DNA from: Schmidtea polychroa
Taxonomy: Eukaryota
DNA length: 64,000 bases
Direction of reading: 5' to 3'
Assembly (NCBI GenBank): GCA_044892525.1
Contig: CM097885.1
Coordinates: 18,478,001 to 18,542,000, forward strand
Positions 1 through 54,129 of the stretch are shown piece after piece. How positions within the stretch are numbered: position 1 is the first letter of the stretch; every line of letters begins with the position of its first letter. The notes below the pieces were generated by a model. It searched no databases. It was given only the letters and a program-made list of their open reading frames with translations, and was not told the DNA's origin. Position numbers and translations under genes: made by a program.

Positions 1-82
1 TGATATTTTAAAGATTTCTAAAGATTTGTTAAAACAAGGAATAATTTCAAAAGATAAATTTAATAAATATACGAAGTTATAA
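1..82 (+). CDS. 3' end of the conserved Polinton ORF paralogous to 8425-9306
   Basis: Reads DILKISKDLLKQGIISKDKFNKYTKL*, identical to the C-terminus of ORF 8425-9306. Confidence 0.85.
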   Translation, partial: DILKISKDLLKQGIISKDKFNKYTKL

Positions 83-105
83 AATACAAAGTTATAAAAT
101 ATAAA

Positions 106-1327: not shown

Positions 1328-1346
1328 CATTTTAAATTATTAATAA

Positions 1347-2345: not shown

Positions 2346-2353
2346 TTATTAAA

Positions 2354-2962
2354 ATGCAAGAAGTAAGAGAAGAAAAAGTTTACCCAGAATTGTCATCAGG
2401 ATATTATTCCCCCAAACCTTCGGCACCTTCGGGACCTTCAGCTCCCACAGAACTTGAAATTATGAGAGTAAAAGAATTTAAGTCAGAAACCTTACATTTA
2501 CAAGATTTATTAAAGCATTATAAAAAAATTAAAAATAGATGGAATAAAGGGAATACAGTTTTAAAAGTTATAGGTTATTCTTTAGGATTTGCATCTGCAA
2601 TATTAACAGTTATTTTACCTATAACTTTACCAGTTTTAACACTTGCGCCAGTAATACTTGGAAGTATTTCTGTAGCTGATGGTTTCTTAACTGAAATAGT
2701 TTCATTATCTTATACTTCAAAAAAGAAAAGTTTATATCATGAAGTTTGTTTGTCAATAGAATTAGGAATCTCTAAATTATTTTTATTTCAATTAAAAGCT
2801 TTGGAAGATGAAATCTTAACTGATGATGAAATAATGAAATCAAATCAAATAATACAAGATATTAAAAATAATATTAATAGATTAAAAAGTGCTAATGTTA
2901 TAACTAATGAATATTCTAAAAAAATTAAACGGGAGAAATGGTTAAAGAATTCTTATTTATAA
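2354..2962 (+). CDS. Membrane protein, gasderminX-like (adintovirus accessory), copy B
   Basis: N-terminal YPEL..PSAP, basic helix, two hydrophobic helices, then KALEDEILTDDE motif. Confidence 0.6.
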   Translation: MQEVREEKVYPELSSGYYSPKPSAPSGPSAPTELEIMRVKEFKSETLHLQDLLKHYKKIKNRWNKGNTVLKVIGYSLGFASAILTVILPITLPVLTLAPVILGSISVADGFLTEIVSLSYTSKKKSLYHEVCLSIELGISKLFLFQLKALEDEILTDDEIMKSNQIIQDIKNNINRLKSANVITNEYSKKIKREKWLKNSYL

Positions 2963-3041
2963 AATGGGTGTATTTTTAAAAAAGTAGATCAGGTTGCTAT
3001 AGTTGCTTAAATTAATTGTCGACATTTTATTATTAAAAAAA

Positions 3042-4108
3042 TTAAATATTGTTGAAAGCCAACCTTTGAATCATTAATTTATGATCTTTAAATTCTTTAT
3101 CACTTAGACCTTTTATATATTCAGGATCAGTATTAAAATATTTAAGTTCTAAACATATAGGATTAAAAACTTGAGAATATAAAGGCTTCTCGATTTCTCT
3201 CTCGGGATAAATGATTTCAACATTATAAATATCAAGATCAGTAATTTTTGTATCATATAACTTATTCAACTTTTCTAGATTTTTTATTATCGGTATTAAA
3301 TTATTTCCTATAGGAAGAGTTGTCTTTAAATCACTTAGGATGAATCTCTTATCATCATAATTTGATAATGATACTTTTTGAGATTCTATCAAGTGAATAT
3401 CATGGTTTTCACTTTTAAGTTGATGTATTTCATCAATTTTATCTTTATGATTTGGATTCAATGTATCTATATAATCTTGATGAGAAAGATTCTTTGCAAC
3501 GGATTTCTGTATTCCTTTACATCTGTTATCCTTTACAGGTTTTTCTTCTTGTCCCTCTGGTCCTTTAGGAAATATAGGATATCTATGTGTAATGGTTTCT
3601 TCTGTTTCTGGAGTTTTAAATATAAATGATCTAGTTATAAATTCAGGGTTTCTAAATGTTTCGTATGAATATTGTTTAGCACGAATAAATATTCCATTTT
3701 CTATAGGAGTAAAAGGTTTTTCATCTTTAAACGAAAATAGTTCTCCAGTTGAATTTATTAAATTTGAAAGTATAGGATTTTCAGCTATATCTCTTTGTAA
3801 ATCATGAGTTCTTATTGTTAAAAACATTGAATCTGTATCCATTGCATGCATTGATATATTAGAACCATATATAGGTTGTAAGATGTTATAATATGTTTCA
3901 TACATTTGTAATTTTGAAAGTTCTAAAATTGAAAACCCTATAAATATTGGTTTGTTGTATGTTTTCTCAAAACTCTTTAGTTCTATTGCAGTAAGACTTT
4001 CAGAAAATACTTGTGCGTTTTTAAATATAGGCTTTCCTAGCATACGATTATAACGCTTAATATCTTTGGCAGTATTAGTTAGGAGTTCAATATGAGTATA
4101 TTTATCAA
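3042..4108 (-). pseudogene. Protein-primed DNA polymerase B, C-terminal fragment, copy B
   Basis: KPIFIGFSILELSKLQMYE, MDTDS, KQYSY, KGI and DDKR motifs; truncated at the 4108 junction. Confidence 0.9.
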
Positions 4109-4122
4109 TTTACCAAATTTAC

Positions 4123-5385
4123 CAATTTTATCTCTCACGAGGAATGATATTAAAAAAAGTTCATAGTGTCATAAGATTTAAACAAGCTCCATTCATGAAA
4201 GCTTTTATCGAGGAGAACATTAGGTGTCGAAACATTGCAAAAAGAGAAGGTAACCTTTTTAAAGATAATAATTATAAAATTTTAAACAATTCAGTATTTG
4301 GGAAAACAATGGAGAATGTTGATAAATATACTCATATTGAACTCCTAACAAATACTACCAAAGATATTAAGCGTTATAATCGCATGCTAGGAAAGCCTAC
4401 ATTTAAAAACGCACAAGTATTTTCTGAAAATCTTACTGCAGTAGAATTAAAAAATTATGAGAAAACATATAACAAACCAATATTTATAGGGTTTACAATT
4501 TTAGAACTTTCAAAATTACAAATGTATGAAACATATTATAACATCTTACAACCTATATACGGAGCAAATATATCAATGCATGCAATGGATACAGATTCAA
4601 TGTTTTTAACAATAAGAACTCATGATTTACAAAAAGATATGAAAGAAAATCCTATACTTTCAAATTTAATAAATTCATCTGGAGAACTATTTTCGTTTAA
4701 AGATGAAAAACCTTTTACTCCTATAGAAAATGGAATATTTATTCGTGCTAAACAATATTCATACGAAACATTTAGAAACCCTGAATTTATAACTAGATCA
4801 TTTATATTTAAAACTCCAGAAACAGAAGAAACCATTACACATAGATATCCTATATTTCCTAAAGGACCAGAGGGACAAGAAGAAAAACCTGTAAAGGATA
4901 ACAGATGTAAAGGAATACAGAAATCCGTTGCAAAGAATCTTTCTCATCAAGATTATATAGATACATTGAATCCAAATCATAAAGATAAAATTGATAAAAT
5001 ACATCAACTTAAAAGTGAAAACCATGATATTCACTTGATAGAATCTCAAAAAGTATCATTATCAAATTATGATGATAAGAGATTCATCCTAAGTGATTTA
5101 AAGACAACTCTACCTATTGGAAATAATTTAATCCCTATAATAAAAAATCTAGAAAAGTTGAATAAGTTATATGATACAAAGATTACTGATCTTGATATTT
5201 ATAATGTTGAAATCATTTATCCCGAGAGAGAAATCGAGAAACCTTTATATTCTCAAGTTTTTAATCCTATATGTTTAGAACTTAAATATTTTAATACTGA
5301 TTCTGAATATATAAAAGGTCTAAGTGATAAAGAATTTAAAGATCATAAATTAATGATTCATAGGTTGGCTTTCAACCATAACTGA
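4123..5385 (+). pseudogene. Protein-primed DNA polymerase B, C-terminal fragment, copy A
   Basis: YKILNNSVFGKTMEN (motif B) and MDTDS (motif C); the N-terminal half is absent. Confidence 0.9.
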
Positions 5386-5471
5386 AACCAACGATATTTA
5401 ATAATAAAATGTCGACAATTAATTTAAGCAACTATAGCAACCTGATCTACTTTTTTAAAAATACACCCATT

Positions 5472-6065
5472 TTATAAGTAAGAATTCTTTAACCATTTTT
5501 CTCGAGATGTTTTTTTATTACTTATAACATTAGCCACCATGCCCTCCCTTTTTAATCTTATAACCTCATTCTTTATATCTTGTATTATTTGATTTGATTT
5601 CATTATTTCTTCGTCTGTCAGGATTCCATCTTCCAAAGCTTTTAATTGAAATAAAAATAATTTAGAGATTCCTAATTCTATTGATAAACAAACTTCTCTA
5701 TATAAACTTTTCTTTTTAGAAGTATAAGATAATGAAACTATTTCAGTTAAGAAACCATCAGCCACAGAAATACTTCCAAGTATTACAGGTGCAAGAGTAA
5801 CAACTGGTAAAGTTATGGGTAAAATAACTGTTAATATTGCAGATGCAAATCCTAAAGAATAACCTATAACTTTTAAAACTGTATTCCCTTTATTCCATCT
5901 ATTTTTAATTTTTTTATAATGCTTTAATAAATCTTGTAAATGTAAGGTTTCTGATTTAAATTCTTTTACTCTCATAATTTCAAGTTCTGTGGGAGCCGAG
6001 ACCTTGGAAGAATAATATCCTGATGACAATTCTGGGTAAATTTTTTCTTCTCTTACTTCTTCCAT
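5472..6065 (-). CDS. Membrane protein, gasderminX-like, copy A
   Basis: Paralog of 2354-2962. Confidence 0.6.
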   Translation of the reverse strand: MEEVREEKIYPELSSGYYSSKVSAPTELEIMRVKEFKSETLHLQDLLKHYKKIKNRWNKGNTVLKVIGYSLGFASAILTVILPITLPVVTLAPVILGSISVADGFLTEIVSLSYTSKKKSLYREVCLSIELGISKLFLFQLKALEDGILTDEEIMKSNQIIQDIKNEVIRLKREGMVANVISNKKTSREKWLKNSYL

Positions 6066-6073
6066 TTTAATAA

Positions 6074-7084
6074 TTAAAAAAATAAGACTTTATTCTTCTG
6101 AGCACCATCTGGCACCAATACTCGGATATCAAAAGAAACTCTTGTTGAGAGGATATCTTTATACAATTCTCTCAATGCTTTACGAACTTCATCAACATCA
6201 ACCTTTTTTTCATAAAATATTAAATCTATATATTGTACAAGTGTGCTTTTAAAAATAATATTCTTACTTTTAACTTTATGTAGTCCATGTGAATGAGTAT
6301 TAACATACCAATCTCCGTGTGGTAAATCATAACTAGTCATTATAACATCACCCTTTTCAAGCTTACTATTATAATCACATTTCACAAACCATTTCATTCT
6401 TTCATTATCATCATCAAACAAAAAGAAATAAGGATCAATAATTTTTACAACCATAAAAACACCCCATTCTTTACTGTTTGTTGTTATTAAACTTGGTTCT
6501 ATAAAATGTTTATATGTATGGGGTAATAATGTTTTATTCTGTTCTAATTCAGCAGCTCTTTTTCTAATACTATGTGTGGTGTTAATGTGTCTTCAATGAG
6601 ACTCTAAATTTGAAATTCTTTTATTAAATGATGTAATCATCTCATTTATTATTTTATATATTGTATTAAATTTAGTATTCATAATTTGTTTATCTTTAGA
6701 ATTTAATATAGCAGTATTTAACTTTACAACTTGTTCAGTTAACAGACTTTGTAACTTGTCAAATTTATCATTAAATCGTTGTTCGATATTATTAAGCTTT
6801 GATTCCATTGAATCCATTTTTGTTGTTAATGAACTTTCAATTCTTGTTGTTGTTAAATCAGTATATTTTTTAACACCATCTACATATTTCTTATTAACTG
6901 CATCAGCTTCATCAGTTGGAAAAGATAATTCTTTTATCTTGTGTCCATTTAAAATTAAATCACCCTTCATTGAATCACCTCTTTCATTAATATATTTATT
7001 TTCTGTTAAAGTTAATATTTCTTCTGTATTAAACCCTGTTTTTATTGTTCCACCACCTCTATTACATGGAATATAAGAACTCAT
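6074..7084 (-). pseudogene. Fiber-like protein, copy A, with an in-frame TGA at 6593-6595
   Basis: Colinear with 1347-2345; the ORF track splits it into 6593-7084 and 6074-6454. Confidence 0.7.
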
Positions 7085-7124
7085 TTATTAATAATTTAAA
7101 ATGGACGGAGTCCCCTGAGAGGAA

Positions 7125-7889
7125 CTAAACCTGTTTCAAATGTAAATACATTGAAATCTCTTCTCCATTAAAATCAATCAATTCTCCTTCTTGATTAAGA
7201 ATTTTAAAATTAATATCCATTATATATTTTCTACATAAAGGTAAATAATTTGGAGGATTCATTCTTTCAACTATTTTATATCCCATAGGAACTGTGTTTG
7301 AGGGAAAGGAATATAAAACATTTGTTTGTTTACCATTATTATAAGAACCTGTTATACAATCGCAATGAATACTTATTGTGTTTGTATTTATTATTTTTAT
7401 AATATGTTCTGATGTTATTATTTTATCTTCTTTTATTGTTATATCCATAGGTTTAAATCCTAAAACTGTGTGAAAGAAACAATTATCTAAAAAACTAATT
7501 TTTATATTTTTCAAAGTCATTACACATTTTGAAGTTGGTATATCCATTTTAATTTTAATACCTTCATTTGTTTTTTTAGAAAGTATATCATTTAAATCTT
7601 TTATCTCATATGCCCCAGGTTCTATTGTTATAATTTCTGGTTTATGCCCATCACGAGTTTGAATAGTAAATTTATTATTATCTTTAGTTATATTAAAAAT
7701 AGTATTATAAGCACAAAACCATAATAGCCCCAATTCATAATTTAAATTTTGATCTAATTTAATTGAATCTTGAAAGTTTATAGTAAAGTCTGATTCTTTT
7801 GAATTTATAGATAAAGTTCTTGAATATTTATCTGACATTATGTTTACCATTTTTTTTAAATTATCTTCCGGAGGGTTGTGAAGCTCCAT
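7125..7889 (-). CDS. Minor capsid (penton) protein, copy A
   Basis: 254 aa with IEPGAYEI, LGF, IHCDCITGSYNNG, and ILNQEGELIDFNGE...LHLK C-terminus typical of Polinton minor capsid. Confidence 0.8.
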   Translation of the reverse strand: MELHNPPEDNLKKMVNIMSDKYSRTLSINSKESDFTINFQDSIKLDQNLNYELGLLWFCAYNTIFNITKDNNKFTIQTRDGHKPEIITIEPGAYEIKDLNDILSKKTNEGIKIKMDIPTSKCVMTLKNIKISFLDNCFFHTVLGFKPMDITIKEDKIITSEHIIKIINTNTISIHCDCITGSYNNGKQTNVLYSFPSNTVPMGYKIVERMNPPNYLPLCRKYIMDINFKILNQEGELIDFNGEEISMYLHLKQV

Positions 7890-7937
7890 TTCTTTAGTAG
7901 TAAATTCATATAGTAAAAATCCTTATAGTAAAAATCC

Positions 7938-8402
7938 TTATAGTAGAGATTCTAGATCATTATAAATTTCTTGAATTATAGATTCAAAATCCCGCGTATG
8001 CCCCTTTCCCTCTCCCTTATTCAATCTATACAAAACATATAAACTTAAAATACCACATATTTTAGTATTCAAAGGTTGAACTTGTAAAGAGTTAAAAGTA
8101 TAACCATTTGGGGAATCAATCGGAGAACCCCTCAAGAGATAATCTTCAACTTCTTTAGTAGGTTTAATCCCAAAAGAATCAAAGTAGATAGATTTCTTAT
8201 ATATACAAACCCAATGAGATCCTTTTTCATTTGAATTTTGATAATTGATTATTATATTCAGGGGACTCTCCAGACTTGATAATTCATCATTCATTAATAT
8301 TTTAATTTTTAAATTTAAATAATTTGCATAATCTTTTAAATCAAAATTTGTTTTTGCATTTATTCCAAATGTTTTTAAAAAATCTAATATTGAAGGAGTC
8401 AT
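7938..8402 (-). CDS. Adenain-like cysteine protease, copy A
   Basis: GSHWV / YFDSFG / QVQ / ICG motifs. Confidence 0.9.
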   Translation of the reverse strand: MTPSILDFLKTFGINAKTNFDLKDYANYLNLKIKILMNDELSSLESPLNIIINYQNSNEKGSHWVCIYKKSIYFDSFGIKPTKEVEDYLLRGSPIDSPNGYTFNSLQVQPLNTKICGILSLYVLYRLNKGEGKGHTRDFESIIQEIYNDLESLL

Positions 8403-8424
8403 TTTGTATTTTAAAACTTCGTAT

Positions 8425-9306
8425 TTATAACTTCGTATACTTATTAAATTTATCTTTTGAAATTATTCCTTGTTTTAACAAATCTTTAGAAATCTTTAAA
8501 ATATCAGAATCTAAATTATTATGTCCTGCTTTCCTTGCAGCTAATAGTTTTCTTAATTCAATAAAAAGATTGATGGGATTTGGTTTACCACCTTCACTAA
8601 TTAATCCCTCTCCCTCTGTAACAACATAACCCTTTTCATTTTTATTTAAATAATTCTTTAAATCTTGAATATATTTTGCTTTAGAACTAGCTCTTATTAA
8701 TCTTATTAAATTTAAATATTTTTTAATTTCTTCAACATCATCTGAAGAATATCCACAAAGTAATTTATAAAAATCATCTGTAAATTCAAAGTCTAAATAT
8801 TCATTATTATAAACATTTTGTGAATGAATACGTGATTTATTTTCTGAATTTGAATATAAAGTAAAGTTTTGTTTATTAATTGTTATTATTTGATATCCTT
8901 CAGTATTAGTATTAAATGTGGGTCTAATTGAAGGAGGTAAATCATCTCTAATTTTAGGATCAACTTTAAGAGGTTTTGTTTTTAAAAACATTTCTTCTTC
9001 TTCCACATTAGAAATTCTTCTGCGTTTTCTTTGATTTCTTTCAGGATGGTTTTCACTGGATTCTTTTTCTTTATCCTGCCACTCTAGTTCTTTTATTTTT
9101 TGTTTTTTATCTTCTAACTCTTTAAATTTTGCTTGCTCATTGAAATCTTCCAACTCTTTTATAGCTTTAATTGTTGGCCCCTGTTGTTGTGTTATTACCT
9201 CATTTAATATTATAGATTCAGCATGTTGAGTTGTATCTTTTTTATTATATTTATCTTGTTCTGATTGTAATTTTTTTAAAAGTGCTAATCTTTCTTCATA
9301 TACCAT
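8425..9306 (-). CDS. Conserved Polinton uncharacterised protein
   Basis: C-terminal GEG...PINLFIELRKLLAARKAGHNN resembles a motif recurrent in Polinton ORFs; basic RNQRKRRR (NLS-like). Confidence 0.6.
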   Translation of the reverse strand: MVYEERLALLKKLQSEQDKYNKKDTTQHAESIILNEVITQQQGPTIKAIKELEDFNEQAKFKELEDKKQKIKELEWQDKEKESSENHPERNQRKRRRISNVEEEEMFLKTKPLKVDPKIRDDLPPSIRPTFNTNTEGYQIITINKQNFTLYSNSENKSRIHSQNVYNNEYLDFEFTDDFYKLLCGYSSDDVEEIKKYLNLIRLIRASSKAKYIQDLKNYLNKNEKGYVVTEGEGLISEGGKPNPINLFIELRKLLAARKAGHNNLDSDILKISKDLLKQGIISKDKFNKYTKL

Positions 9307-10745: not shown

Positions 10746-12155
10746 TTAAAAATCTGTTTTCTGTAACTCATTATTATAAAATCTACCTAATATTTTTTCA
10801 TTATTTAAATCAAAGATGGTATATGTTATTGGAGTTGTATAATGTATTTTATTTATAATAAAAATTTCATTTGTCCATTTTGCTGTGAATCCTTTTTCAA
10901 ATTTATTTTTATATTTAAATATTCTTACTCGGTCACCAATTTTAAACTTTGGTTTTTCAATAACATCATTTTCAATATTTACCACTTTAATGGTTTCAGG
11001 CTTCATGGAAGCATTTAAAGGTGTTAATTTTATAGAACTATGTACATCATTATTATATTCATTTACAATCTTTTGTAACAATTCATTGTTCCATTTTTGT
11101 TTTCCAATAGCAGTAAAATATTTCCACATTTTATTTTTTAATGTTCTATTTAATCTTTCAACTACGACTGCTTTTCCTTCGTTTTCTGTTGAATATAATT
11201 TAATATCATTTTCATTTAAAAACTTTGTAAAAACTTTGTTATAAAATTCTGTTCCTTTATCACACCATAAATATTTTGGGATTCTTTGATTTTCTTCAAA
11301 TATATTTTCAAATGCTTCTGTAATAGAATATCCTGTTTTATTTTCTAAACATCTTGCAAAAGCAAATCTTGTATATAAATCTATTACAGTTAAAATTATT
11401 TTATATTTTTCAGGGTCTGATGATTTGGGCATAAATACTAAATCTGCAGACCATGTTTGATCTTTTTCATGTACTTGAACTTTTAAATATTTTTTATTTT
11501 TTCTAAATTCATGGTGTAATTCCTTTGCATATTTTATTTCTGATTCTGTTGGGGTTTGTAAACTAGTCTTGGCTGTACTCTCGAGGGATCTTTCAATCTC
11601 TGCTTGTTCGATAATCTTTTTATAAGCAACATCTTTTGCTTTCCTAGGAAGTCTTGCACCCATGGTGATCGGACTGTGTCCTAAGCCTATGAAAATCTTA
11701 CCTTTCATTGCTAATTTAACTAGAGCTCTTTGAATATTTTCTTGGGTTGATGGATTTTGGATACTATTTAAATCATGTATTAAATTCACATCTGCAACAT
11801 GTCTATCTCTAAGATTTGTTGAATTGTATGCAATGTCATGTTTTAAAGCTGCTTGATCAATTCTATTTATTGGTTCTTCTCCTTGTTTGGGATTATTATT
11901 TTCATCTAATCTAATATCTAGACGTGTTCCTGGTCCAGTATAGTTGTGTTTAAATAAATGTCTTTCACCTGGATATTTTTCTGTAGTAAAAGGTTTTAAT
12001 ATTGAAGATGTTGTTTTTGAAGATTGCAAATCGCCTCCAGCTCGTGGAATTAGGTCACCTACTGTATGTTTTTTAGTTTTAAGATGGCTTGCTTTATGAT
12101 GTCTTGTAACTTGACAATTACAAGTTTCACATCTCCAATATTTATTTAAAGACAT
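10746..12155 (-). CDS. Zn-finger + parvovirus-type PLA2 domain + retroviral-like integrase (single ORF)
   Basis: CETC..H..H; YTGPG and DQAALKHDIAY; WSADL, WCDKGTEF and VVERLNRTLK (DDE); KFKIGDRVRI SH3-like tail. Confidence 0.85.
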   Translation of the reverse strand: MSLNKYWRCETCNCQVTRHHKASHLKTKKHTVGDLIPRAGGDLQSSKTTSSILKPFTTEKYPGERHLFKHNYTGPGTRLDIRLDENNNPKQGEEPINRIDQAALKHDIAYNSTNLRDRHVADVNLIHDLNSIQNPSTQENIQRALVKLAMKGKIFIGLGHSPITMGARLPRKAKDVAYKKIIEQAEIERSLESTAKTSLQTPTESEIKYAKELHHEFRKNKKYLKVQVHEKDQTWSADLVFMPKSSDPEKYKIILTVIDLYTRFAFARCLENKTGYSITEAFENIFEENQRIPKYLWCDKGTEFYNKVFTKFLNENDIKLYSTENEGKAVVVERLNRTLKNKMWKYFTAIGKQKWNNELLQKIVNEYNNDVHSSIKLTPLNASMKPETIKVVNIENDVIEKPKFKIGDRVRIFKYKNKFEKGFTAKWTNEIFIINKIHYTTPITYTIFDLNNEKILGRFYNNELQKTDF

Positions 12156-12184: not shown

Positions 12185-13473
12185 TCAAGAATCTCCCCTA
12201 ACATTTTCGATTATTGAAATCTTTCCACCATATAATTTCATTTCTATTTTCTTTTCTTCTAATATTAATGTACATATACTTTAGCTTTAAAATTAGAATC
12301 CTTTGTTACATGAAGTGTAACATCAACATTATTTATGGCTAGGCGATCATCTTGGTCTGAAACATTTATACAAAATATAGAATATAAATTTTTGAAATCT
12401 TCTAAACTTAATTGCGGTTCAACTTTGAAATCATAACATGTTTCAATATAATTTAGATATGGGAATATGTTTTCATTATTTTCAATATTAAATTCCATTC
12501 TATTTATTGGATAATAAGAACTATTTAATTGAATTTGGATTGTTTTTAAATTATCAACTCCAATCTTTTGAATAAACAAGTTGTTATTTTTTTGGAAAGA
12601 TGAATCTACTTCTTTGAATCCAATCAAGATATATCTTGGTCGGTATGCTAAATTTGCTACCTTTATAGAATATGTTGAACCCTCTGTCATACTAAATTCA
12701 CTTCAGATTCTATTTAAATAATTTACATTTATAGACTTGTTGGAATTTAATCTTTCAAGGAGTTTAATCTCAGAATGTGGGTTTAATGTCCATTCAGGTA
12801 TATGTAATTCAAGTGTTGATAATTTTAATTTAGCTTTTGTATCTACAGCTCCATAGAACAATCTTTTATCACCTTCTACTCTATTACAGATGAATTCTAT
12901 AAAAACATTATGAAGTATACGATTATAGTTTTGAAGGAATCCAAACAAGTGTTTTAATTCAAAATAACCTTCAAATTTTTTAGATTTATAAAGTTCAGCT
13001 CTTTTATGGTAACCATGGTTTACATCTAAACCATCTTTATCTAAATCCCCTTTATTAACATCAGGAATCCAACCTGTTAATTCACCATATTCGTTTTTAT
13101 AATCACAATCAGTCAAAATAAAATTTAACATTGTAGAATATACTCCCGGATGCAAAACAGTTTCAATTTCTGATGATCCTAGTTTTAATCTCATGTTGGA
13201 GAATAAATTTGGAAAGAAATTATTCTCTAGGGTTATATCTTTGTTTGCTTCAATTTCTAATTCAATTTTATAATATAATTTGGCATTACAAATATCTATA
13301 GGGTTTGATGTTTGAAGAGATTGAAAAACTATATCACCCCTACGATTTAAGTTTGCAATAGATCCTGAAGTTGGGGAGATTTTAAGTACATCGTTTTTCT
13401 TGATTTCATGAGTAAATTCTTTATTATAATCAAGATTTAATTTATTTTTTTCTTGAATTTTTATATTATTCAT
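12185..13473 (-). pseudogene. Major capsid (hexon-like double jelly roll) protein, with an in-frame TGA at 12703-12705 and a frameshift near 12270
   Basis: LENNFFPNLFS..L....IE, LKHLFGF, RPRYILIGF, YSIFCINVS; size and position fit the Polinton MCP. Confidence 0.75.
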
Positions 13474-13529
13474 TTTTATATATTAAAATTTACACACACA
13501 CAATAGGATTAATTAAATATATTTTGTAA

Positions 13530-13612
13530 GCCATTATAGCGGAGTGGGAATAGGCTTCAATTTTATCACCGGGAGTACCGGGTTCAATTTTCGATTTTGG
13601 TCAATTTTTTTC
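13530..13612 (+). ncRNA. tRNA-like Pol III unit 1
   Basis: A box TAGCGGAGTGG (13537), B box-like GGTTCAATTTT (13581), tRNA-like length, T7 run immediately after. Confidence 0.45.
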
Positions 13613-13772
13613 GATATTTTTTTTCAACGGAATCTGATTCAGCGTACTGATTTTAGTATATATTTAAATTTTCAGATGGATCTGAGTGGTAGTTGTCGAG
13701 AAAATGAATAATTAATTATCAATTTCATCAATAAATAGTCACACATTAACAACTTATTTTATATTGAATATA

Positions 13773-13852
13773 GCTCTAATAGCTTAGTGGTAATAGCACT
13801 CGACTGCATTGCCAATACCAATGGGTTCAAATCCCATTTCGGTCATATTTTT
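13773..13852 (+). ncRNA. tRNA(Cys)-like Pol III unit 2
   Basis: TAGCTTAGTGGTAATAGCA D-arm/A box, CT-GCA loop, perfect T-arm ATGGG-TTCAAAT-CCCAT, T5 after; acceptor and anticodon stems do not pair. Confidence 0.6.
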
Positions 13853-14013
13853 CAAATTTTTTTTAACGAAATATTGATCAGCATACTCGATTTAGTACTT
13901 GTACAAATTTTTAATGAGATTGGTCAACGGCAACTCTTGGAAATTTAAGATCAAAAACGTTTTAACTTAAGCTACCAAAAATTAATATATCCAATAAAAA
14001 AATATTTATAAAA

Positions 14014-14283
14014 ATGGATGAGTTAAAAGAAAGAATGAGAAATGAATTGAATGAAGTTAAACATAAGAGAATGAAAAGAAGAGAAGAAGAACCATTAGAA
14101 TACATCAAAGAGTTGATGGTAGATAATGAAAAGTATCGACATTTTTATATGAAGGCTGTAGATGTTGCTGATATAAGATTGAAGAAAATGAAACAATTAC
14201 AGGAAAGAGTTAAAGAACTTGAATCGATTATTTATAGTCTAAAAAATGACAAAAATCCAATCCTAGATAGCGCAGTGGGCTAG
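14014..14283 (+). CDS. Small charged coiled-coil protein
   Basis: 89-aa ORF with the same AAAATG start context as the other Polinton genes; its 3' end runs into the TIR. Confidence 0.5.
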   Translation: MDELKERMRNELNEVKHKRMKRREEEPLEYIKELMVDNEKYRHFYMKAVDVADIRLKKMKQLQERVKELESIIYSLKNDKNPILDSAVG

Positions 14284-15179
14284 ACCGGCACCGTGGTTCA
14301 AATGGATAGCGGTTCAAATCCTAACTGTGGTTAGTTTTTTTTTCAACATAAAATAATATTAAAAATTTGAAAATAATAGTGTGGGTATCTTATATTTATA
14401 AAGTACTTGTATATTTTATTTTATTTATTTTATTTTATTTTATTTTTTTATAAATTAATTATTTTTTAAACATAAATATGAAAAAAAAAATATTGAAACG
14501 GGTGATGGTGGCGAACCGGTAATTATCGCCACCTGTCTTTCGAACACCCCCGGATCGATCCCGGTAATGTGCACATTTATTTCTCAGTTGTTTTCGGACC
14601 TCTTTCGGATTCGCTTTCGAATTCATTTGTACTTTCGAGCAGCACACTTAAAACGCCGATGAAATCGACTTCGTGAGCGAGAAGCGAATAATAAGGTGTG
14701 CTGCTATTATCGGATTGATTCTGATGTATGAGTCTGGCCAGCTTGTATATTGGAAGAGATTCGATAAACGAAAGAGGTTGAAATAAAAAAAAAAATGATC
14801 CGGATCAAAAAAACTGTTGAGGGGACAATGAAAAAAAAAAAAAAAAAAAATACCACTGTCCCCTCAGAGCAGTTTTACTATTTTTCATTTATTTTTTAAT
14901 TTATATAATTTAAAATCAATAATCTGATAAAGATCAAATAGCCCTCTAACTTTTTCATAATGCCATTTTCTTTTCTATTCTCTTTTTAGTTTGAAGCTTT
15001 TGAGTTTGAGGCTTTAAAGATTAAAACAGTTAGAGTCATTAAGGGTGGTTGTTTTCAAAATATAGGGTTAAAATACTATAAAAGTATAAGTTTTAGGTTG
15101 TTTTTTCTAATAGCTTAAGTGATTTGGAGGCATGTTTTTGTTGGGGGGCTGTTTTGGTTGGGTATATAACCACACTACT
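14236..15179 (+). repeat. Terminal inverted repeat of Polinton A (~945 bp)
   Basis: Close match to 16882-17845; ends CACACTACT. Confidence 0.85.
14261..14343 (+). ncRNA. Pol III unit 3 (in TIR A)
   Basis: A box TAGCGCAGTGG (14268), GGTTCAAATGG (14295), B box GGTTCAAATCC (14311), T9 terminator. Confidence 0.55.
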
Positions 15180-16807
15180 GTTTCTGAAATTCCTCGAAAT
15201 GTATATTCTCTAGATTCTATGAGTTCAGGATAATTACTTTTAAATAATAATTTATAAGCAGATGGTAATTGTTTAGTTTTTTTAACACTATTAGGTTTAT
15301 TCCTTTTTCTTAGAAAGGCTTTCATCCTCTCTGGTTTCATCTTCTCTCCTGAGGAGTTCCAGGAATCCATGAGTTTATTTTTTTCTATTATTTTTAAATA
15401 TTGTTTAACCAAATGTTGTTTACGATTTATAGATTCAAAGTCTCCATAAACCACTCCTACTGTTTGTAGTAAATTTGAAAAGTTTTTAAAATACATCTTG
15501 GGATTATTAGGCATTTTAATTAAAGCTGGTTCATCTTTTTCACAAAATCTTGTATGTTTAATCATAGAGTTTTTAGTTGTTGAATAATGAAGACATCTTT
15601 TACATGTTCCTCCTCCACTAGTTGGATTCTCTGGTGATGTAAAAGCTTGAAAGTTTTTTATTAAAACATAATGTTGATTATTTTTTTGTTCCAAGATTAA
15701 AAGATATATCTCCCTAGTGTTATCCTGGGGTTCGTTATCTCTAACTTCATAATCTGAAATATAAATTGGAATAATTTCTCTGCTATTAACATGTTTCCCT
15801 TTAACACGTTCATAAATATTAATTTTAAGATTATTTAAACTTTCAAATTTTGGAATGTCTTCTAGTTTCATTGGATGTTTGAATCCTTTGGGAAATATTA
15901 ATTCATTTTCATATTGTTTGTATTTTGAAACTCTTTGAGGGTTTGATTCTTGAGGGCGTAAATGTGCAAGTATTGACCAGACGAAACATTTGTTATCATT
16001 ATTCTGTATGTTTATAACATTTTTAGATTTAAAGGGTGTAGGAATATAAGATTTAGAATTAGGTGGTAATCCTCTCCAATAATCAATCACTAAAGTTTGG
16101 AAAGAGTTGAATACTAAGTTTGAATCTCCTAATTCATTTTCAACCTCTTCTTGTTTTGCTTCTACTGCTTGAATTATTTCTTTGATGGTTTTATCAAATA
16201 CTTTAGTTGAAAATAAATATTTAAAGGGTATTCCAATTTCAACATCTAAAGGTGTTGTCTTTTCTTCTGCTCCTCGCCAGTATTTTGTTTTGATTATAAT
16301 TTTATATTTTATAACATTATACCTTGTCGGTTTATGATTTTTTAAAGCTTCAGTGAAAGAATTTTTAATATTTTTTTTATTTTTATTTATATATTCTCCA
16401 GGAGTTATAGGTCCATTGATTTCTAATTGAAATTCATCTACATGATTAAAATCATCCCAGTTATATTTTTCTCTTTCAACATGATCAGGTTCTCCTTCTG
16501 AATGACATTCCTCATCGTCAGAATTTTGTTTTTTATTTTTACATTCTTTTATATGTTCTAAATAATAGAAATTTACTTTTGTTGAAAAGTTACAGTGAGA
16601 ACATGTAAATATTTCTCTATTTTTCCCGATACAATTTTCAAAATGTTTATTATATCCAGAATGTAGAAATCTTCCTTTACATTTAGGACAAACTTTTGAA
16701 TTTGTATCATTAAGATTGTTTTCTTTTAATAAATGAGCTTTCGATTTTAAGTGAGAAATTAATCCAGTTTTATTTTTAAAAACTTTATTACAAATATTAC
16801 AATTCAT
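15180..16807 (-). pseudogene. Protein-primed PolB N-terminal half, copy B, cut by insertion of copy A
   Basis: Three N-terminal Zn fingers, NDNKCFVWSILAHL...QHYVLIKN (OTU-like Cys/His), CKRC..H..C, ExoI VYGDFES; the last ORF residues are read-through into TIR A. Confidence 0.85.
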
Positions 16808-16881: not shown

Positions 16882-17845
16882 AGTCTAAAAAATGAGAAAA
16901 ATCCAAACCTAGATAGCGCAGTGGGCTAGACTGGCACAGTGGTTCAAATGGATGGTGGTTCAAATCCTAACTGTGGTTAGTTTTTTATCAACATAAAATA
17001 ATATTAAAAATTTGAAAATAATAGTGTGGGTATCTTAGATTTATAAAGTAGTTGTATATTTTATTTTATTTTATTTATTTTATTAATTATTTTATTTTTA
17101 AACATAAATATGAAAAAAAAATTATTGAAACGGGTGATGGTGGCGAACCGGTAATTATCGCCACCTGTCTTTCGAACACCCCCGGATCGATTCTTTAATG
17201 TGCACATTTATTTCTCAATTGTTTTCGGACCTCTTTCGGATTCACTTTCGAATTCATTTGTACTTTCGAGCAGCACGCTTAAAACGCCGATGAAATCGTA
17301 TTCGAGCGAGAAGCGAATAATAAGGTGTGCTGCTATTATCGGATTGATTCTGATGTATGAGTCTGGCCAGCTTGTATATTAGAAGAGATTTGATAAACGA
17401 AAGAGGTTGATAAATAAAAAAATGATCCGGATCAAAAAAACTGTTGAGGGGACAGTGAAAAAAAAAAATACCACTGTCCCCTCAGAGCAGTTTTACTATT
17501 TTTCATTTATTTTTTAATTTATATAATTTTAAATCAATAATCTGATAAAGATCAACTCCGGAGTTTGATTGCGATCAAAAGTAGTGTGTATATAGCCCTA
17601 TCCCAAATAGCCCTCTAACTTTTTCATAATGCCATTTTCTTTTCTATTCTCTTTTTAGTTTGAAGCTTTTGAGTTTGAGGCTTTAAAAATTAAGGGTGGT
17701 TGTTGTTTAAAATATGGGGTTAAAATACTATAAAAGTATAAGTTTTAGTTTGTTTTTCTAATGGTTTAAGCGTAATGGAGGTATGTTTTTGTTGGGAGGG
17801 TTGTGTTGGGAGGGTTGTGTTGGTTGGGTATATATACACACTACT
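16882..17845 (+). repeat. Terminal inverted repeat of Polinton B (pPolB-proximal end)
   Basis: Matches 14236-15179; ends TATATACACACTACT. Confidence 0.85.
16906..16987 (+). ncRNA. Pol III unit 4 (in TIR B)
   Basis: A box TAGCGCAGTGG, GGTTCAAATGG, GGTTCAAATCC, T7; boxes unchanged relative to unit 3. Confidence 0.55.
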
Positions 17846-20800
17846 TATGAATCAACTAAGATAATAAATTAATAAGATAAGATCTAGTAGATAATTGATT
17901 TAGATTGAATAAATTAATTGAAATAAAATTAATTTTAATTATTTTTTTAAAAGTACTCAAATTGATTGACTGATTGCTCAATATATTCAAAAAAACAGTA
18001 TAAATTAATTACAATTATCAAAGTCATCAATCTACAATAAAAATAATTATCATTAAATTCCAAAAGAGACTGATAACTAATGATAACATCTAATAAACCA
18101 GTATATTCAAGTGAATTCTCTAATAAAATCATCTAAAAAGCATCAAATTTCCCTGAAATATCTCTATCTTTTAAGATTAGTATCTTATCGATAAGTACTT
18201 GTTAAAGATCATATATTCACCTCAAACTAATAAGATTCCTTAAAATCCCTGAAATGACTATATTTCAACCCTTTATCCATATTATTACAAATATCATCAA
18301 AAAAGCATCAAATTTCCCTGAAATAACTCCAACTTTAAAGATTAGTATTTTATCGATAATTACACTTAAAAGGATATATATTTCCCTCAGACTAATAAGA
18401 TTCCTTAAAATCCCTTTAAATGACTATAATTCTAACTTTAATTCCTATTATCACGAATATTTCCCTATAAAACATGTAAAATAATTTGATCATTAACACT
18501 AAATAATTTATAAAATCTAATGATAAAACCAGTTATAATTAAATTTTTATTCTAAAAATAAATCACTCTATTTGAAATTTTAAATAAATATTACTACAAT
18601 ATAACTGACTAGGTCCCATTGAAAGATTAAATTTATCCATTCAATAAAATATATTTCTTCAAATGATCATTTTTACCAATATTCAACCGATTTAATTACT
18701 AATTAAAATCAAGATTTCTTTCAATAAAGATCAATTTTATTTAGTTGTTGTCGATGTTTTAAGTCCATATTTTTCAACTTTTGTCATTCTCCGTCTAAAT
18801 AAAGATAAAAATAAATTAAAGTTGATATCAATCCCAATTATCTGTAAAGTTTTCATTGTCAAAACCAAGTAAATCGATCATTATCCCTACTTAATAGAAC
18901 ATTGTTCTAAAACATAAATCTAAATTAATATACAATGAATTAATCACAACCTAATAAAACGATATAATTATTATTGATTCATAACTGACTAATTGCAATT
19001 TCCCTTAAAACATTGATATTTGACCAACATTACCCATGTAAATATTCAAAAGATTCCCATCGAAACCCTTCCCTCATTAAAAGCAACCGACTATATCTTT
19101 CTTAAAATGAAATATTCCCATATTAACCGACTATATCCCATCTTAACCGATCTCTCATTAAATCTAACCGACAATATCCCATCTTATCCGATCTCTCAGC
19201 AAATATTTCTACCCTTTTAAACATCTATCCGATTATATCCCTTAATTCTACCCACTTGAATCCTCCTTTAATTCACTCAATCCTCTTAAAATCCTTAGAG
19301 AGAATTCTTCAAAAATATGACTTTTCATAAACTGTTAAAGACACCAGGCATTCTTCCATAGAAATAATTTAGAAGCTAAATAATAAGAGCCCACTAACCA
19401 ATCAAAATCATGGAAGGGCAGGGAAAAAATATATTACGTTGCGGTATTTTAAAATTAAAATTTATTTTAAAAACACATTTTGACGCTAAAGTCGACTTAT
19501 GTAACAAAGATATAATAAACTCATTATTTTCTACAAATATTTACCATCAAATACCTAACTGGAGATGATATATATTGTTTGATGATAATTCTTCAGCTAT
19601 TCAGCCAATCATTTTCAAGCAATAACAGCAAACTAAATTTCTGTATATCCTACAATAATTATCAAGTAAATTTAAAGTCCCTGATAAAGTTAACTGGTTT
19701 CTTAGCCTATGTTTTTTAAAGTTCATCAATGTGTAAATATTCTTAGAAAATTATTGAAAAATTATTTAGTCAAATACATTAAAAAGTTATCATCAAAAAT
19801 CACTTAATTATTAACCTAATTGTCAATGAAATTAATTTTTATTTAAAAACTATTCAATAAAATACAACTAATTATCAAGAAATTAATTAAATTTATTAAT
19901 TAAATTTATCAGTCAACATGAAAATCTTAGAAAATTATTCAATATCTTCATCAAAATTTATCCTATCACTTGATTATTGTACAAAAATAAATTTTTATTT
20001 AAAATTATCAAGAAATTAATTAAATTTACCTTAGAATTAGCATTAAATTTTTAAATATTCATTCAATAAACATGAAATTCACAAAAAACGATAAAAATTC
20101 ACAAAAATGATAGAAATCCGCAAAAATAATAGAAAATTACAAAAAATGATGGAAATTCACAAAAAACGATAAAAATTCACAAAAATGATAGAAATCAGCA
20201 AAAATAATAGAAATTTACAAAAATCAAAGAAATTCACAAAAAACGATAAAAATTCACAAAAATGATAGAAATTTACTTGAATATTTACTAAAACCATCAA
20301 CTCTAAAAATTATCAATGAATACCTTAAACAACAAATTTGCCTAAATAATCATTCAAATAAAAGCATTAAATACCTTTACGACTAATACCCTTGCGACGT
20401 TGAATGTGAGTAGTACCCTTGTGAGCAATACCCATAGGGGAACAGAATATTTTGTCGGATAAACTCAAAGTATATATAATAAAACCCATTCAAATTTTTC
20501 ATTGATTTAGTCAAATTATCATAAATTTCGATAAAAAATCTAAAGTGGTAAGCAATGAAAAAGACAATTATTCTTTAAACTATGATAAAATTAACAATGA
20601 AGGTGGTAAGAATCTTCATTAAAGTGAGGAAATTATTCATTATTCGATGATAAATTCAAATGGGTGAAAATAATTGGTAGAATAATTCATTAATGGAGGT
20701 AAATACTGAGAATGGGCATAGATAAGATGAAGGTTGATAATAATGGAAGTATATTAATTGAATTTATTTAAAATTATTTCAGAAAATTCATAAATTTAAT

Positions 20801-23800
20801 AAAAAAAACTTTTAAAAGAAATATTTGTGGGGATGTTTTAAGTGAATAATTAATAAAAATCGGCGGAATATAAGTAGAAAATCGGGGGATATTAGTGATT
20901 AATTAATGGAAAATAGAGAATCGGGGGATATAAGTGATAATAATTAGTGGAAAATCGGGGGAATATAAGTGAGAAGGATATGTAATTTAAACTATTTTAT
21001 TACGTAACAAGCTGTGAATGGTATTTTATTGAGAATTATTGATTAGGTCTTTTTTATAATTTTTGAATAAGTACTTTAATACCTTAATAATTTAAATGTT
21101 TTGATTTACACTAAATAAATTCTAAATCAATTACCCTTTTCAATCAAAATAAGATCAATTATATACCTTTTTATAAAATTCAGTTAAAATTAAATACTTT
21201 CCACTAAATTTAAAATATATAAATTTTATAAGTTTTTCAAATTTTCAAATAATGTAAATAAGAAATTAATCTATTGCCAGTTATATACTTTTAAACTTAT
21301 TGATGGAATAAAACATTAGAAATAAAAAGTTTTTGTTGTATAAATCCTTTAATATTGTAATAATAGCTATTTATTAATAAATTTATTAATTTACGTTAAA
21401 TATTTCAAAAACAATTATCTTATTATTAATTATATTACCCTTTTTAATCAAAATAAGATAAATATTCAAATAGATGACTTTTATAAAATACAATTAAAAT
21501 TAAATACTTTACACTAAATTTAAAAATATAAATTTTATAAGTAAATGTAAATAAGAAATTACTGTATTAGCAGTTATAGACTTTTTAAACTTATTGATTA
21601 GGCAATAGATATTAAAAGTAACTTTTTTTTTCAAAAGGTCGTTCAATATTGTATTCTATTCAATATTAAATTTACTATTTTACACTAAAATATTTCGAAA
21701 GCAATTATCATAAAAAAACAATTATCAACCAAAATAATTTAAATGTAATACTCAAATATTTGTCTTAAAAATTAAATCAAAATTAAATACTTCACGAAAT
21801 TTAAGTAAAGTTTTTAAATTCACAAATAAATGTTAACAAGATATTAATTAATTAATCATTATAGACTTTTTAAACTCATCATTGGAATTAAACAATAGAA
21901 TGATATTCAAAATATATACAATTTAAAAATATAATTAAAATTAAATTACATACTTTAAAAATTTGGTAAAATGTTGGTAAAAATACCATTCACAGCTTGT
22001 TATGTAATAAACTAGTCACGGCTTGTTATGTAATAAACTAGTTTAAATTACATATCCTCCTCACTCTATTTCCCACTATTTATTCACTTATATCCCCCCG
22101 ATTTTCCACTATTTAATCACTTATATTCCCTGATTTTCTACTTATATTCCACCGATTTTGATTAATTATTCCCCACAAATATTTCTTTTTTTTTATTAAA
22201 TTTATAAATTTTATGAAATAATTTTAAATAAATTCAATTAATATATTTCCATTCTTATCAACCTTCATTTTATCTATGCCACTTCTGAGTATTTACCTCT
22301 CATGATCCATTAATGAATTAATGTTAACAAGATATTATTTAATTAATCATTATAGACTTTTTAAACTTATCATTGGAATTAAACAATCGAATGATATTCA
22401 AAATATATACAATTTAAAAAATACAATTAAAATTAAATTACATACTAGGTAAAATGTTGGTAAAATAATGGTAAAATACCTCTCACAGCTTGTTATGTAA
22501 TAAAATAGTCACGGCTTGTTATGTAATAAAGTAGTCGCGGCTTGTTATGTAATAAAATAGTTTAAATTACATATCCTTCTCACTTATATTCCCCCGATTT
22601 TCCACTAATTATTATCACTTATATCCCCCGATTCTCTATTTTCCATTAATTAATCACTAATATCCCCCGATTTTCTACTTATATTCCGCCGATTTTTATT
22701 AATTATTCACTTAAAACATCCCCACAAATATTTCTTTTAAAAGTTTTTTTTATTAAATTTATGAATTTTCTGAAATAATTTTAAATAAATTCAATTAATA
22801 TACTTCCATTATTATCAACCTTCATCTTATCTATGCCCATTCTCAGTATTTACCTCCATTAATGAATTATTCTACCAATTATTTTCACCCATTTGAATTT
22901 ATCATCGAATAATGAATAATTTCCTCACTTTAATGAAGATTCTTACCACCTTCATTGTTAATTTTATCATAGTTTAAAGAATAATTGTCTTTTTCATTGC
23001 TTACCACTTTAGATTTTTTATCGAAATTTATGATAATTTGACTAAATCAATGAAAAATTTGAATGGGTTTTATTATATATACTTTGAGTTTATCCGACAA
23101 AATATTCTGTTCCCCTATGGGTATTGCTCACAAGGGTACTACTCACATTCAACGTCGCAAGGGTATTAGTCGTAAAGGTATTTAATGCTTTTATTTGAAT
23201 GATTATTTAGGCAAATTTGTTGTTTAAGGTATTCATTGATAATTTTTAGAGTTGATGGTTTTAGTAAATATTCAAGTAAATTTCTATCATTTTTGTGAAT
23301 TTTTATCGTTTTTTGTGAATTTCTTTGATTTTTGTAAATTTCTATTATTTTTGCTGATTTCTATCATTTTTGTGAATTTTTATCGTTTTTTGTGAATTTC
23401 CATCATTTTTTGTAATTTTCTATTATTTTTGCGGATTTCTATCATTTTTGTGAATTTTTATCGTTTTTTGTGAATTTCATGTTTATTGAATGAATATTTA
23501 AAAATTTAATGCTAATTCTAAGGTAAATTTAATTAATTTCTTGATAATTTTAAATAAAAATTTATTTTTGTACAATAATCAAGTGATAGGATAAATTTTG
23601 ATGAAGATATTGAATAATTTTCTAAGATTTTCATGTTGACTGATAAATTTAATTAATAAATTTAATTAATTTCTTGATAATTAGTTGTATTTTATTGAAT
23701 AGTTTTTAAATAAAAATTAATTTCATTGACAATTAGGTTAATAATTAAGTGATTTTTGATGATAACTTTTTAATGTATTTGACTAAATAATTTTTCAATA

Positions 23801-25706
23801 ATTTTCTAAGAATATTTACACATTGATGAACTTTAAAAAACATAGGCTAAGAAACCAGTTAACTTTATCAGGGACTTTAAATTTACTTGATAATTATTGT
23901 AGGATATACAGAAATTTAGTTTGCTGTTATTGCTTGAAAATGATTGGCTGAATAGCTGAAGAATTATCATCAAACAATATATATCATCTCCAGTTAGGTA
24001 TTTGATGGTAAATATTTGTAGAAAATAATGAGTTTATTATATCTTTGTTACATAAGTCGACTTTAGCGTCAAAATGTGTTTTTAAAATAAATTTTAATTT
24101 TAAAATACCGCAACGTAATATATTTTTTCCCTGCCCTTCCATGATTTTGATTGGTTAGTGGGCTCTTATTATTTAGCTTCTAAATTATTTCTATGGAAGA
24201 ATGCCTGGTGTCTTTAACAGTTTATGAAAAGTCATATTTTTGAAGAATTCTCTCTAAGGATTTTAAGAGGATTGAGTGAATTAAAGGAGGATTCAAGTGG
24301 GTAGAATTAAGGGATATAATCGGATAGATGTTTAAAAGGGTAGAAATATTTGCTGAGAGATCGGATAAGATGGGATATTGTCGGTTAGATTTAATGAGAG
24401 ATCGGTTAAGATGGGATATAGTCGGTTAATATGGGAATATTTCATTTTAAGAAAGATATAGTCGGTTGCTTTTAATGAGGGAAGGGTTTCGATGGGAATC
24501 TTTTGAATATTTACATGGGTAATGTTGGTCAAATATCAATGTTTTAAGGGAAAATGCAATTAGTCAGTTATGAATCAATAATAATTATATCGTTTTATTA
24601 GGTTGTGATTAATTCATTGTATATTAATTTAGATTTATGTTTTAGAACAATGTTCTATTAAGTAGGGATAATGATCGATTTACTTGGTTTTGACAATGAA
24701 AACTTTACAGATAATTGGGATTGATATCAACTTTAATTTATTTTTATCTTTATTTAGACGGAGAATGACAAAAGTTGAAAAATATGGACTTAAAACATCG
24801 ACAACAACTAAATAAAATTGATCTTTATTGAAAGAAATCTTGATTTTAATTAGTAATTAAATCGGTTGAATATTGGTAAAAATGATCATTTGAAGAAATA
24901 TATTTTATTGAATGGATAAATTTAATCTTTCAATGGGACCTAGTCAGTTATATTGTAGTAATATTTATTTAAAATTTCAAATAGAGTGATTTATTTTTAG
25001 AATAAAAATTTAATTATAACTGGTTTTATCATTAGATTTTATAAATTATTTAGTGTTAATGATCAAATTATTTTACATGTTTTATAGGGAAATATTCGTG
25101 ATAATAGGAATTAAAGTTAGAATTATAGTCATTTAAAGGGATTTTAAGGAATCTTATTAGTCTGAGGGAAATATATATCCTTTTAAGTGTAATTATCGAT
25201 AAAATACTAATCTTTAAAGTTGGAGTTATTTCAGGGAAATTTGATGCTTTTTTGATGATATTTGTAATAATATGGATAAAGGGTTGAAATATAGTCATTT
25301 CAGGGATTTTAAGGAATCTTATTAGTTTGAGGTGAATATATGATCTTTAACAAGTACTTATCGATAAGATACTAATCTTAAAAGATAGAGATATTTCAGG
25401 GAAATTTGATGCTTTTTAGATGATTTTATTAGAGAATTCACTTGAATATACTGGTTTATTAGATGTTATCATTAGTTATCAGTCTCTTTTGGAATTTAAT
25501 GATAATTATTTTTATTGTAGATTGATGACTTTGATAATTGTAATTAATTTATACTGTTTTTGTGAATATATTGAGCAATCAGTCAATCAATTTGAGTACT
25601 TTTAAAAAAATAATTAAAATTAATTTTATTTCAATTAATTTATTCAATCTAAATCAATTATCTACTAGATCTTATCTTATTAATTTATTATCTTAGTTGA
25701 TTCATA
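17846..25706. repeat. Large inverted repeat: arms 17846-21012 and 22540-25706, ~1.5-kb spacer
   Basis: Mirror ORFs (19020-19220/24332-24532, 18254-18484/25068-25298) all sum to 43552; very few mismatches seen. Confidence 0.95.
20075..20275 (+). repeat. ~20-bp tandem repeat (AAATTCACAAAAAACGATA-like); mirrored at ~23277-23477
   Basis: Direct inspection. Confidence 0.8.
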
Positions 25707-52700: not shown

Positions 52701-52726
52701 GTCTTCATTTCGCTTCTTTCTACTGA

Positions 52727-53974: not shown

Positions 53975-54129
53975 AAAATCAATAAATCAATAATAAATGC
54001 AATTAAAATATATTTTCCAAAAACACGCTAAATCGAATATTATTTAAACAAACAACTTTCCATAACTAATACAATGTCAATTGAAAAAAAATGAGACCTG
54101 AAAATCGACAAAATTTCTTATAATTTTGT

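Follow-up and report, generated by a model that had tools for sequence, protein, structure and literature searches.

The three tRNA-like RNA polymerase III (Pol III) units that a first-pass annotation had flagged near one end of a Polinton do not make up a single set of viral RNA genes. Sequence comparison indicates that units 1 and 2 are very probably a recent capture by template switching, from host ribosomal DNA (rDNA) into the Polinton. Unit 3 is older than this cassette, and variation among its copies points to purifying selection on its promoter boxes. Beside it lies a fourth A/B-box unit, left unflagged by the annotation, whose predicted fold makes it the best RNA-gene candidate, likely for a small RNA. 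A function like that of adenoviral VA RNA, as proposed for the cluster, is unsupported for units 1–3; such an idea, in its VA or its herpesviral (TMER) form, would apply best to unit 4.

Pol III-type units at the end of a Polinton

The pattern TAGCNNAGTGG-N25-50-GGTTCRA has four matches in the window (the whole 64-kb stretch of DNA analysed), at 13537, 13780, 14268 and 16914, all on the + strand, and none in any of 100 dinucleotide shuffles of the window. The three + strand units, each read as an A box, a B box and an oligo-T run, are thus present as described. Unit 1 (13530–13611, +; pattern and fold) has its A box at 13537–13547, its B box at 13581–13591 and T7 at 13605–13611. Unit 2, which is tRNA-Cys-derived (13773–13852, +; Rfam tRNA model and comparison with host tRNA-Cys), has an A box at 13780–13790, a B box at 13824–13834 and T5 at 13848–13852, followed by T8. 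Unit 3 (14261–14343, +; pattern and alignments) has an A box at 14268–14278, B boxes at 14295–14303 and 14311–14321, and T9 at 14335–14343. Unit 4 (14502–14885, +; folding z-score, alignment and pair counts) shows an A-box-like stretch at 14509–14519, a B-box-like one at 14552–14562 and, at its 3' end, T4 (14873–14876) and T5 (14881–14885). The published consensus for type-2 Pol III promoters is an A box TRGYNNARNNG and a B box GGTTCRANYCY, 30–60 nt apart (PMC12498455). Units 2 and 3 fit it fully, unit 1 has one mismatch, in the B box, which is without the conserved C, and unit 4 has one mismatch per box. An oligo-T terminator follows every unit (T5–T9 in units 1–3, T4 then T5 in unit 4), and T4 runs also occur internally, three in unit 1 and one in unit 4 (14591–14594, about 90 nt in).

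With regard to tRNA identity, only unit 2 passed the Rfam threshold (32.4 bits against a gathering cut-off of 29; E 5e-4). On the Rfam tRNA model its T-arm pairs and its acceptor and anticodon stems are both unpaired, in agreement with the earlier description. Units 1 and 3 gave no Rfam tRNA match at E<=10, the VA RNA family gave no Rfam match at E<=10, and ARAGORN called no tRNA genes. A reading of the units as tRNA genes was rejected on the ARAGORN result, the broken stems of unit 2 and the lack of covariation in unit 3.

The source element is a true Polinton, a virus-like transposon. Pfam detected its hallmark domains in the window, namely pPolB (PF03175), a retroviral-type integrase (PF00665) and the capsid (PF21738), together with a packaging ATPase match (PF04665) slightly below cut-off; the ORF list shows the capsid and ATPase genes as two ORFs apiece in this copy. 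The major capsid protein (MCP) gene (double jelly roll; 12265–13473, −) is split into ORFs 12703–13473 and 12265–12690, both matching PF21738, and reads inward, away from the Pol III units. The integrase ORF (10746–12155) carries a phospholipase A2-like domain (PF08398) at its N-terminus. Window positions 1–8506 hold an inverted pair of Polinton internal regions (1–4108 against 4319–8506, about 90% identical), both of which include a 3' portion of the polymerase gene.

AG-rich TIR termini and a TSD of 6 bp characterize Polinton/Maverick elements. Both occur in a sister copy of about 15 kb (G000:C1:3426589-3441669), with AGTAGT ends and the TSD TATATC, as seen in the one of three fetched end pairs in which both ends were visible. 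By repeat comparison and with the TSD and termini of the sister copy, the TIR at the capsid-gene end of the window element was placed at 14236–15179 (+), with terminus ACTACT and the element end at 15179. A second TIR copy (16882–17845, +; repeat comparison, pattern and fold), the 'copy B' of the first reading, belongs to another, truncated element, whose polymerase-side end it forms, and carries unit 3B (16907–16986, closing with T6 at 16981–16986) and unit 4B (about 17134–17494). The claim that unit 3 lies in the TIR and recurs in copy B with its boxes unchanged was borne out, the two copies agreeing at 21 of 21 box positions and at 47 of 52 others. At the polymerase-side end of the truncated element lies an ORF (15107–16807, −; ORF list and Pfam) whose sole Pfam feature is an N-terminal C2H2 zinc finger; judged by its place beside the TIR, we infer it to be the 5' part of the polymerase gene. 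All units point outward, whereas the capsid gene and, at the other end, this long ORF read inward. An ORF of 89 aa (14014–14283, +; ORF list and Pfam) has its stop inside unit 3. It belongs to no known family, as it has no Pfam family and its Atlas neighbours are all unnamed; it is optional in the Polinton family, and of the 57 copies that bear it, 54 keep an open frame of at least 70 aa.

Other repeats occur further along the window. Exactly where the second TIR stops begins a perfect inverted repeat (17846–25706; 3183 bp, with its arms 1.5 kb apart), probably another DNA element. Positions 48065–61794 and 62241–62831 hold LTR-retrotransposon ORFs for RT, RNase H and integrase and a 196-aa ORF in which a Ras-family piece is fused to a proteasome-subunit piece.

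Exact matches in the 781-Mb genome number 2074 for a capsid motif, 3062 for unit 3, 2784 for unit 2 and 1772 for one variant of a unit-4 motif, and the Polinton copy number is about two thousand. To describe unit content we sampled C1, using 90 of the first 100 places there that match the capsid motif. This sample was chosen independently of the units, although the motif came from the main family, and unit-free families may therefore be less rare than they appear. At the capsid end, 42 of these elements have all three units, 21 have one unit 3 only, 11 have unit 3 in duplicate, eight have none and eight have other combinations. The unit 1–2 cassette is present in 50 of the 90 and lacking in 40, and a looser test found unit 3 in 79. 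Six sampled elements have different, short ends with no units at all. Two of them are complete, with TIRs of 328 and 340 bp (99% and 96% identity) and perfect 6-bp TSDs (L134 and L129), indicating that the Pol III module is dispensable for integration; the other four showed no matching far end within the 10 kb fetched. The outermost 270–340 bp of the ends (window 14890–15179 and 17570–17845; also L134, L129, L143, L124, L160 and L103) form one module, bounded by a short inverted repeat whose inner AGTAGT faces the terminus in most copies, and it accounts for the entire TIR of both complete sister elements.

Units 1 and 2 and the host rDNA spacer

Since unit-2 matches exceeded the Polinton count, a one-base variant of unit 2 was traced to rDNA. 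It accounts for 1478 matches, of which those listed (100) are spaced about 13 kb apart on small contigs and chromosome ends, and the ~13-kb repeat that holds units 1 and 2 is the 45S rDNA (18S, 5.8S and 28S). Both units are near-identical to the spacer between 28S and 18S of this repeat, unit 1 being identical to its spacer counterpart over the unit length. For unit 2, a single diagnostic base in the D-loop region distinguishes the rDNA copies from those in Polintons.

These counts also bear on whether the units might be ordinary tRNA-derived SINE insertions or neutral relics, as would suit their SINE-like, tRNA-derived heads with a degenerate cloverleaf and their dispensability in the sister elements. 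Such an origin is largely refuted and appears extremely improbable. The 1306 unit-2 matches outside rDNA show no excess over the ~1286 expected from 62 unit-2 per 100 capsid matches, no SINE body or tail is found, and the boxes of unit 3 bear signs of selection (see below). Moreover, the 60 loci examined all lie in Polinton ends or the rDNA spacer, with 30 of 30 unit-3 loci in TIRs, 28 of 30 unit-2 loci in Polintons and the other two in rDNA. The units thus belong to Polinton ends as fixed components and are not dispersed SINEs, although units 1 and 2 are absent from 40 of the 90 sampled elements.

The cassette (13485–13983, +), as delimited by the ends of spacer homology and by empty sites, consists of 487 bp (13491–13977) between two AAAATT copies at 13485–13490 and 13978–13983. 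Spacer homology to the window is confined to 13485–13978, and AAAATT occurs in the spacer at the left edge only. The spacer junctions are identical in 22 loci representing 18 distinct repeats, one of them without the right junction within its stretch. Six of the 40 cassette-free elements have an exact empty site with a single AAAATT. Divergence of the cassette from the 45S intergenic spacer is 1.3% (49 copies) or 2.4% (45 copies), and MCP third-position diversity is 0.042 among cassette-bearing and 0.092 among cassette-free copies. We infer that the cassette was probably gained by a microhomology-guided template switch at AAAATT, from rDNA to Polinton.

Transfer in the reverse direction, with the cassette passing from a Polinton to the spacer, being fixed there by concerted evolution, and the empty sites arising by deletion between the AAAATT copies, appears very unlikely. 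Direct repeats do allow such a deletion, and the Polinton version of unit 2 is closer to a tRNA than the spacer version (32.4 against 24.2 bits). However, the spacer homology starts and stops where the indel does, the rDNA unit contains no further Polinton sequence, the spacer has an extra unit of its own at the same period, and cassette-free elements are about twice as diverse as bearers. An MCP tree requires 10 changes for the cassette label and does not group the bearers as one clade; since four of its rows are long or rearranged and recombination is present, it settles neither the direction of transfer nor a single origin, and leaves that much room for the reverse route.

Capture from rDNA thus remains the favoured origin, and it speaks against the proposal that units 1 and 2 are the Polinton's own viral RNA genes, since they match host rDNA spacer sequence, are probably of recent arrival and are missing from 40 of 90 elements. 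Within the cassette, shared variants (defined below) fall at 2 of 42 box sites and 3 of 106 others, the cassette being too young for selection to show. In 21 of 45 copies unit 2 has lost its 5' leader and kept its A box. Unit 2 folds into two hairpins (z -2.89), and unit 1 is unstructured (z 0.08).

In the spacer itself the array runs antisense to the rRNA, with a unit 0, a unit 1 and then one to three copies of unit 2; unit 0, 237 bp upstream, has no match in the window. Overall, the host 45S spacer (L263:2900-3860, G000:C202 and other repeats) holds three to five tRNA-derived A/B-box units with a period of about 240 bp, in several hundred repeats in total, and this array is possibly a Pol III barrier within rDNA. 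Host tRNA genes form very large tandem arrays (C1:269.25 Mb, C4:76.66 Mb, C140 and C333), with 1001 tRNA-Cys motif matches as well as Lys and Arg arrays.

Constraint on unit 3 and the fold of unit 4

Variation in unit 3 was scored over 97 alignments from 80 loci, and a variant was called shared when present in at least three copies; such variants likely arose in replicating lineages. Shared variants occur at 2 of 30 box sites compared to 22 of 44 non-box sites (p=9e-5), the single change in the A box being at its R position, and singletons are distributed similarly (7 of 30 against 13 of 44). The boxes also have fewer shared variants than MCP third positions (58 of 223; p=0.02), although they are no more conserved than the adjoining GC-rich TIR (29 of 306). 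The prediction that the boxes are conserved above their flanks therefore held for unit 3 against the rest of the unit, but not against the neighbouring TIR, nor in the cassette.

No conserved fold accompanies these boxes. The recurrent haplotypes of unit 3 (19 of 44) have folding z-scores from -0.71 to +1.28, no better than shuffles. A cloverleaf or terminal-stem model was rejected, since among 17 of these haplotypes no pair was compensatory and pairing was lower than in the average shuffle, in agreement with RNAalifold. Constrained boxes together with the absence of a conserved fold suggest that unit 3 is likely a TFIIIC/Pol III element at the level of DNA, with TFIIIC as its putative ligand.

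This bears on the earlier proposal that the family encodes small Pol III RNAs serving as decoys, RNAi suppressors or TFIIIC insulators. Units 1 and 3 are unlikely to yield a structured decoy of VA type, since neither folds better than shuffles and unit 3 shows no covariation, and the TFIIIC option fits better. We would likewise give little credence to units 1–3 each being a small Pol III RNA gene selected as a VA-like decoy against dsRNA sensing or RNAi. All three do have an A box, a B box and a T-run in tRNA geometry, the cassette is present in 50 of 90 elements, unit 2 forms its two hairpins, and the commonest unit-3 haplotypes can close a terminal stem of 6–9 bp. On the other side stand the host-spacer identity of units 1 and 2, the missing leader in nearly half of the unit-2 copies, the three internal T4 runs and shuffle-like fold of unit 1, and the z-scores of unit 3 with its lack of compensatory pairs.

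Of the 79 elements with unit 3, 77 also have unit 4 (370 nt, 14502–14876), which is predicted to form a multi-helix fold with stems of 25 and 21 bp, its two window copies giving folding z-scores of -7.91 and -9.90. In all eight haplotypes folded (of 37 representative ones), the outward + strand scored better (-6.2 to -12.9) than the reverse (-3.8 to -6.0). As gaps disturbed RNAalifold, the structure was taken from averaged pair probabilities, and was thus derived from the same sequences on which it was tested; 98.6% of cells pair in it (39 rows, 95 pairs). Two pairs are two-sided (compensatory), a number reached by 43 of 500 shuffles, whereas the number of compensatory cells, in which relatives are counted repeatedly, was reached by none of the 500. 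Pairing is kept by 10 of 15 shared variants compared to 7 of 33 singletons (p=0.004), and shared variants fall at an equal rate in paired (15 of 190) and unpaired (14 of 165) columns. The B-like box changes at Y positions only, in 38 of 39 rows. Several haplotypes have whole helices deleted. Unit 4 has no Rfam match at gathering level, and neither unit 3 nor unit 4 has a relative in the rDNA unit except for an AT-rich 34-mer. A tRNA-Asp origin of the head of unit 4 was considered and not confirmed, the probe motif matching no host gene.

The internal T4 is of consequence for any transcript of unit 4. Among host tRNA genes, Lys has a downstream T7 and Arg a T5, whereas Cys has T4 runs only, and T4 may therefore terminate here. 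If so, any unit 4 transcript would end at this run, unit 3 would be the sole functional Pol III element, and the folded region might serve in single-stranded form when DNA is replicated by strand displacement, or belong to a Pol II leader, a reading that we consider rather unlikely. It would agree with the location in the TIR, with the one mismatch in each box and with the folding of the region as DNA (z -5.46 on + and -4.28 on −), in which G-T wobble is tolerated too. Against it, the fold starts at the A/B-box pair, stops at the T-run and has the same orientation as unit 3, and the B-like box varies at Y positions only. Furthermore, complete elements with 330–340-bp TIRs and TSDs lack the region, so that neither replication nor integration requires it.

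Proposed role and relation to known systems

The reading we prefer, with moderate confidence and on the sequence patterns described above, is that TFIIIC binds outward boxes in both TIRs, with unit 3 as a docking or barrier element, unit 4 as the source of a structured Pol III RNA of TMER or VA type, and units 1 and 2 as optional captured boxes. Under this model, the tRNA-type A/B boxes facing outward at the Polinton ends would attract host TFIIIC and, with it, RNA polymerase III. The RNA sequence of unit 3 would be of little importance; the unit itself may keep the TIR open and load Pol III beside unit 4 and between the flanking host DNA and the capsid and polymerase genes, which read inward. 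The long stems of the unit 4 RNA might serve as Dicer substrates or dsRNA-sensor decoys. At least one animal is reported to target Polintons through piRNAs and chromatin (PMC8532177), which would provide a motive for a barrier or an RNA role. In a wider version of this scheme, which is speculative and which we regard as improbable, the Polinton's own 370-nt structured Pol III RNA, made from both TIRs, would dampen host small-RNA defence, the boxes having been gained by duplication and rDNA-spacer capture, and the module would have helped this family multiply into the thousands, whereas sister families without units remained rare.

TFIIIC-bound tDNA, ETC and SINE sites are chromatin barriers. 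Unit 3 resembles them in retaining boxes without an RNA fold at a boundary, and differs in that it occurs on both ends of a mobile element and that its binding is putative. Adenovirus VA RNA, of about 160 nt, has a role towards PKR and Dicer. Like the units described here, the VA RNA I and II genes have a single internal A and B box, in canonical type-2 promoters as outlined in two sources (PMC12498455, PMC8223928). They compare with unit 4 in its strong base pairing, and their carrier is a linear dsDNA relative with a protein-primed polymerase. Unlike VA RNA, units 1–3 are short and have no conserved fold, and unit 4, at about double the length, lies in a TIR; with no Rfam VA match, a VA-like function would be by analogy only. 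The TMERs of murine gammaherpesvirus 68 are described as clustered type-2 Pol III units with a tRNA-like 5' part and hairpins (PMC8223928), and the layout predicted for unit 4 is the same, within an equally clustered viral set of type-2 units. Transcription of TMERs has been demonstrated, however; they retain tRNA-like structure, their A box is triplicated and miRNAs are made from them. The Polinton units, by contrast, whose transcription is predicted, have no cloverleaf and are carried in the TIRs of an integrating element.

Ordinary tRNA genes in polinton-like viruses are already known. Such genes were called by Infernal or ARAGORN in polinton-like viruses, virophages and MELD viruses (PMC12220804, PMC8502044). 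They too are tRNA-related sequences on Polinton-class elements and are thought to be host-derived, but they are read as codon compensation, whereas the units described here fail ARAGORN and show no cloverleaf, and units 1 and 2 come from an rDNA spacer and not from a tRNA locus. The open-access literature, searched by titles and the starts of abstracts, yielded nothing on RNAs of Pol III or VA type in Polintons, on TFIIIC insulators in TIRs or on tRNA-like arrays in the 45S spacer. If their TIRs hold a Pol III module, Polintons, which are usually described by their proteins, would gain a non-coding counter-defence or chromatin-barrier device resembling those of adenoviruses and gammaherpesviruses. 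The dated capture of rDNA-spacer DNA shows a route by which such modules can be gained, and because there are about 3000 copies, the module is directly testable by small-RNA sequencing and ChIP.

Within the host genome, a diverged MCP query gave matches only at 75–76%. Searches across species found 41 MCP homologues, and DNA was obtained for 30 metagenome loci, of at most 52% identity. These loci, mostly short and without element ends, held no convincing A/B unit, with one loose match in 83.6 kb, and the 19 of 30 that were scanned gave no tRNA match. IMG/VR contained no relatives and no unit-3 or unit-4 motif. One metagenomic relative (L063:3810-3889) has a long hairpin upstream of its capsid gene, with a weak mir-754 match below cut-off.
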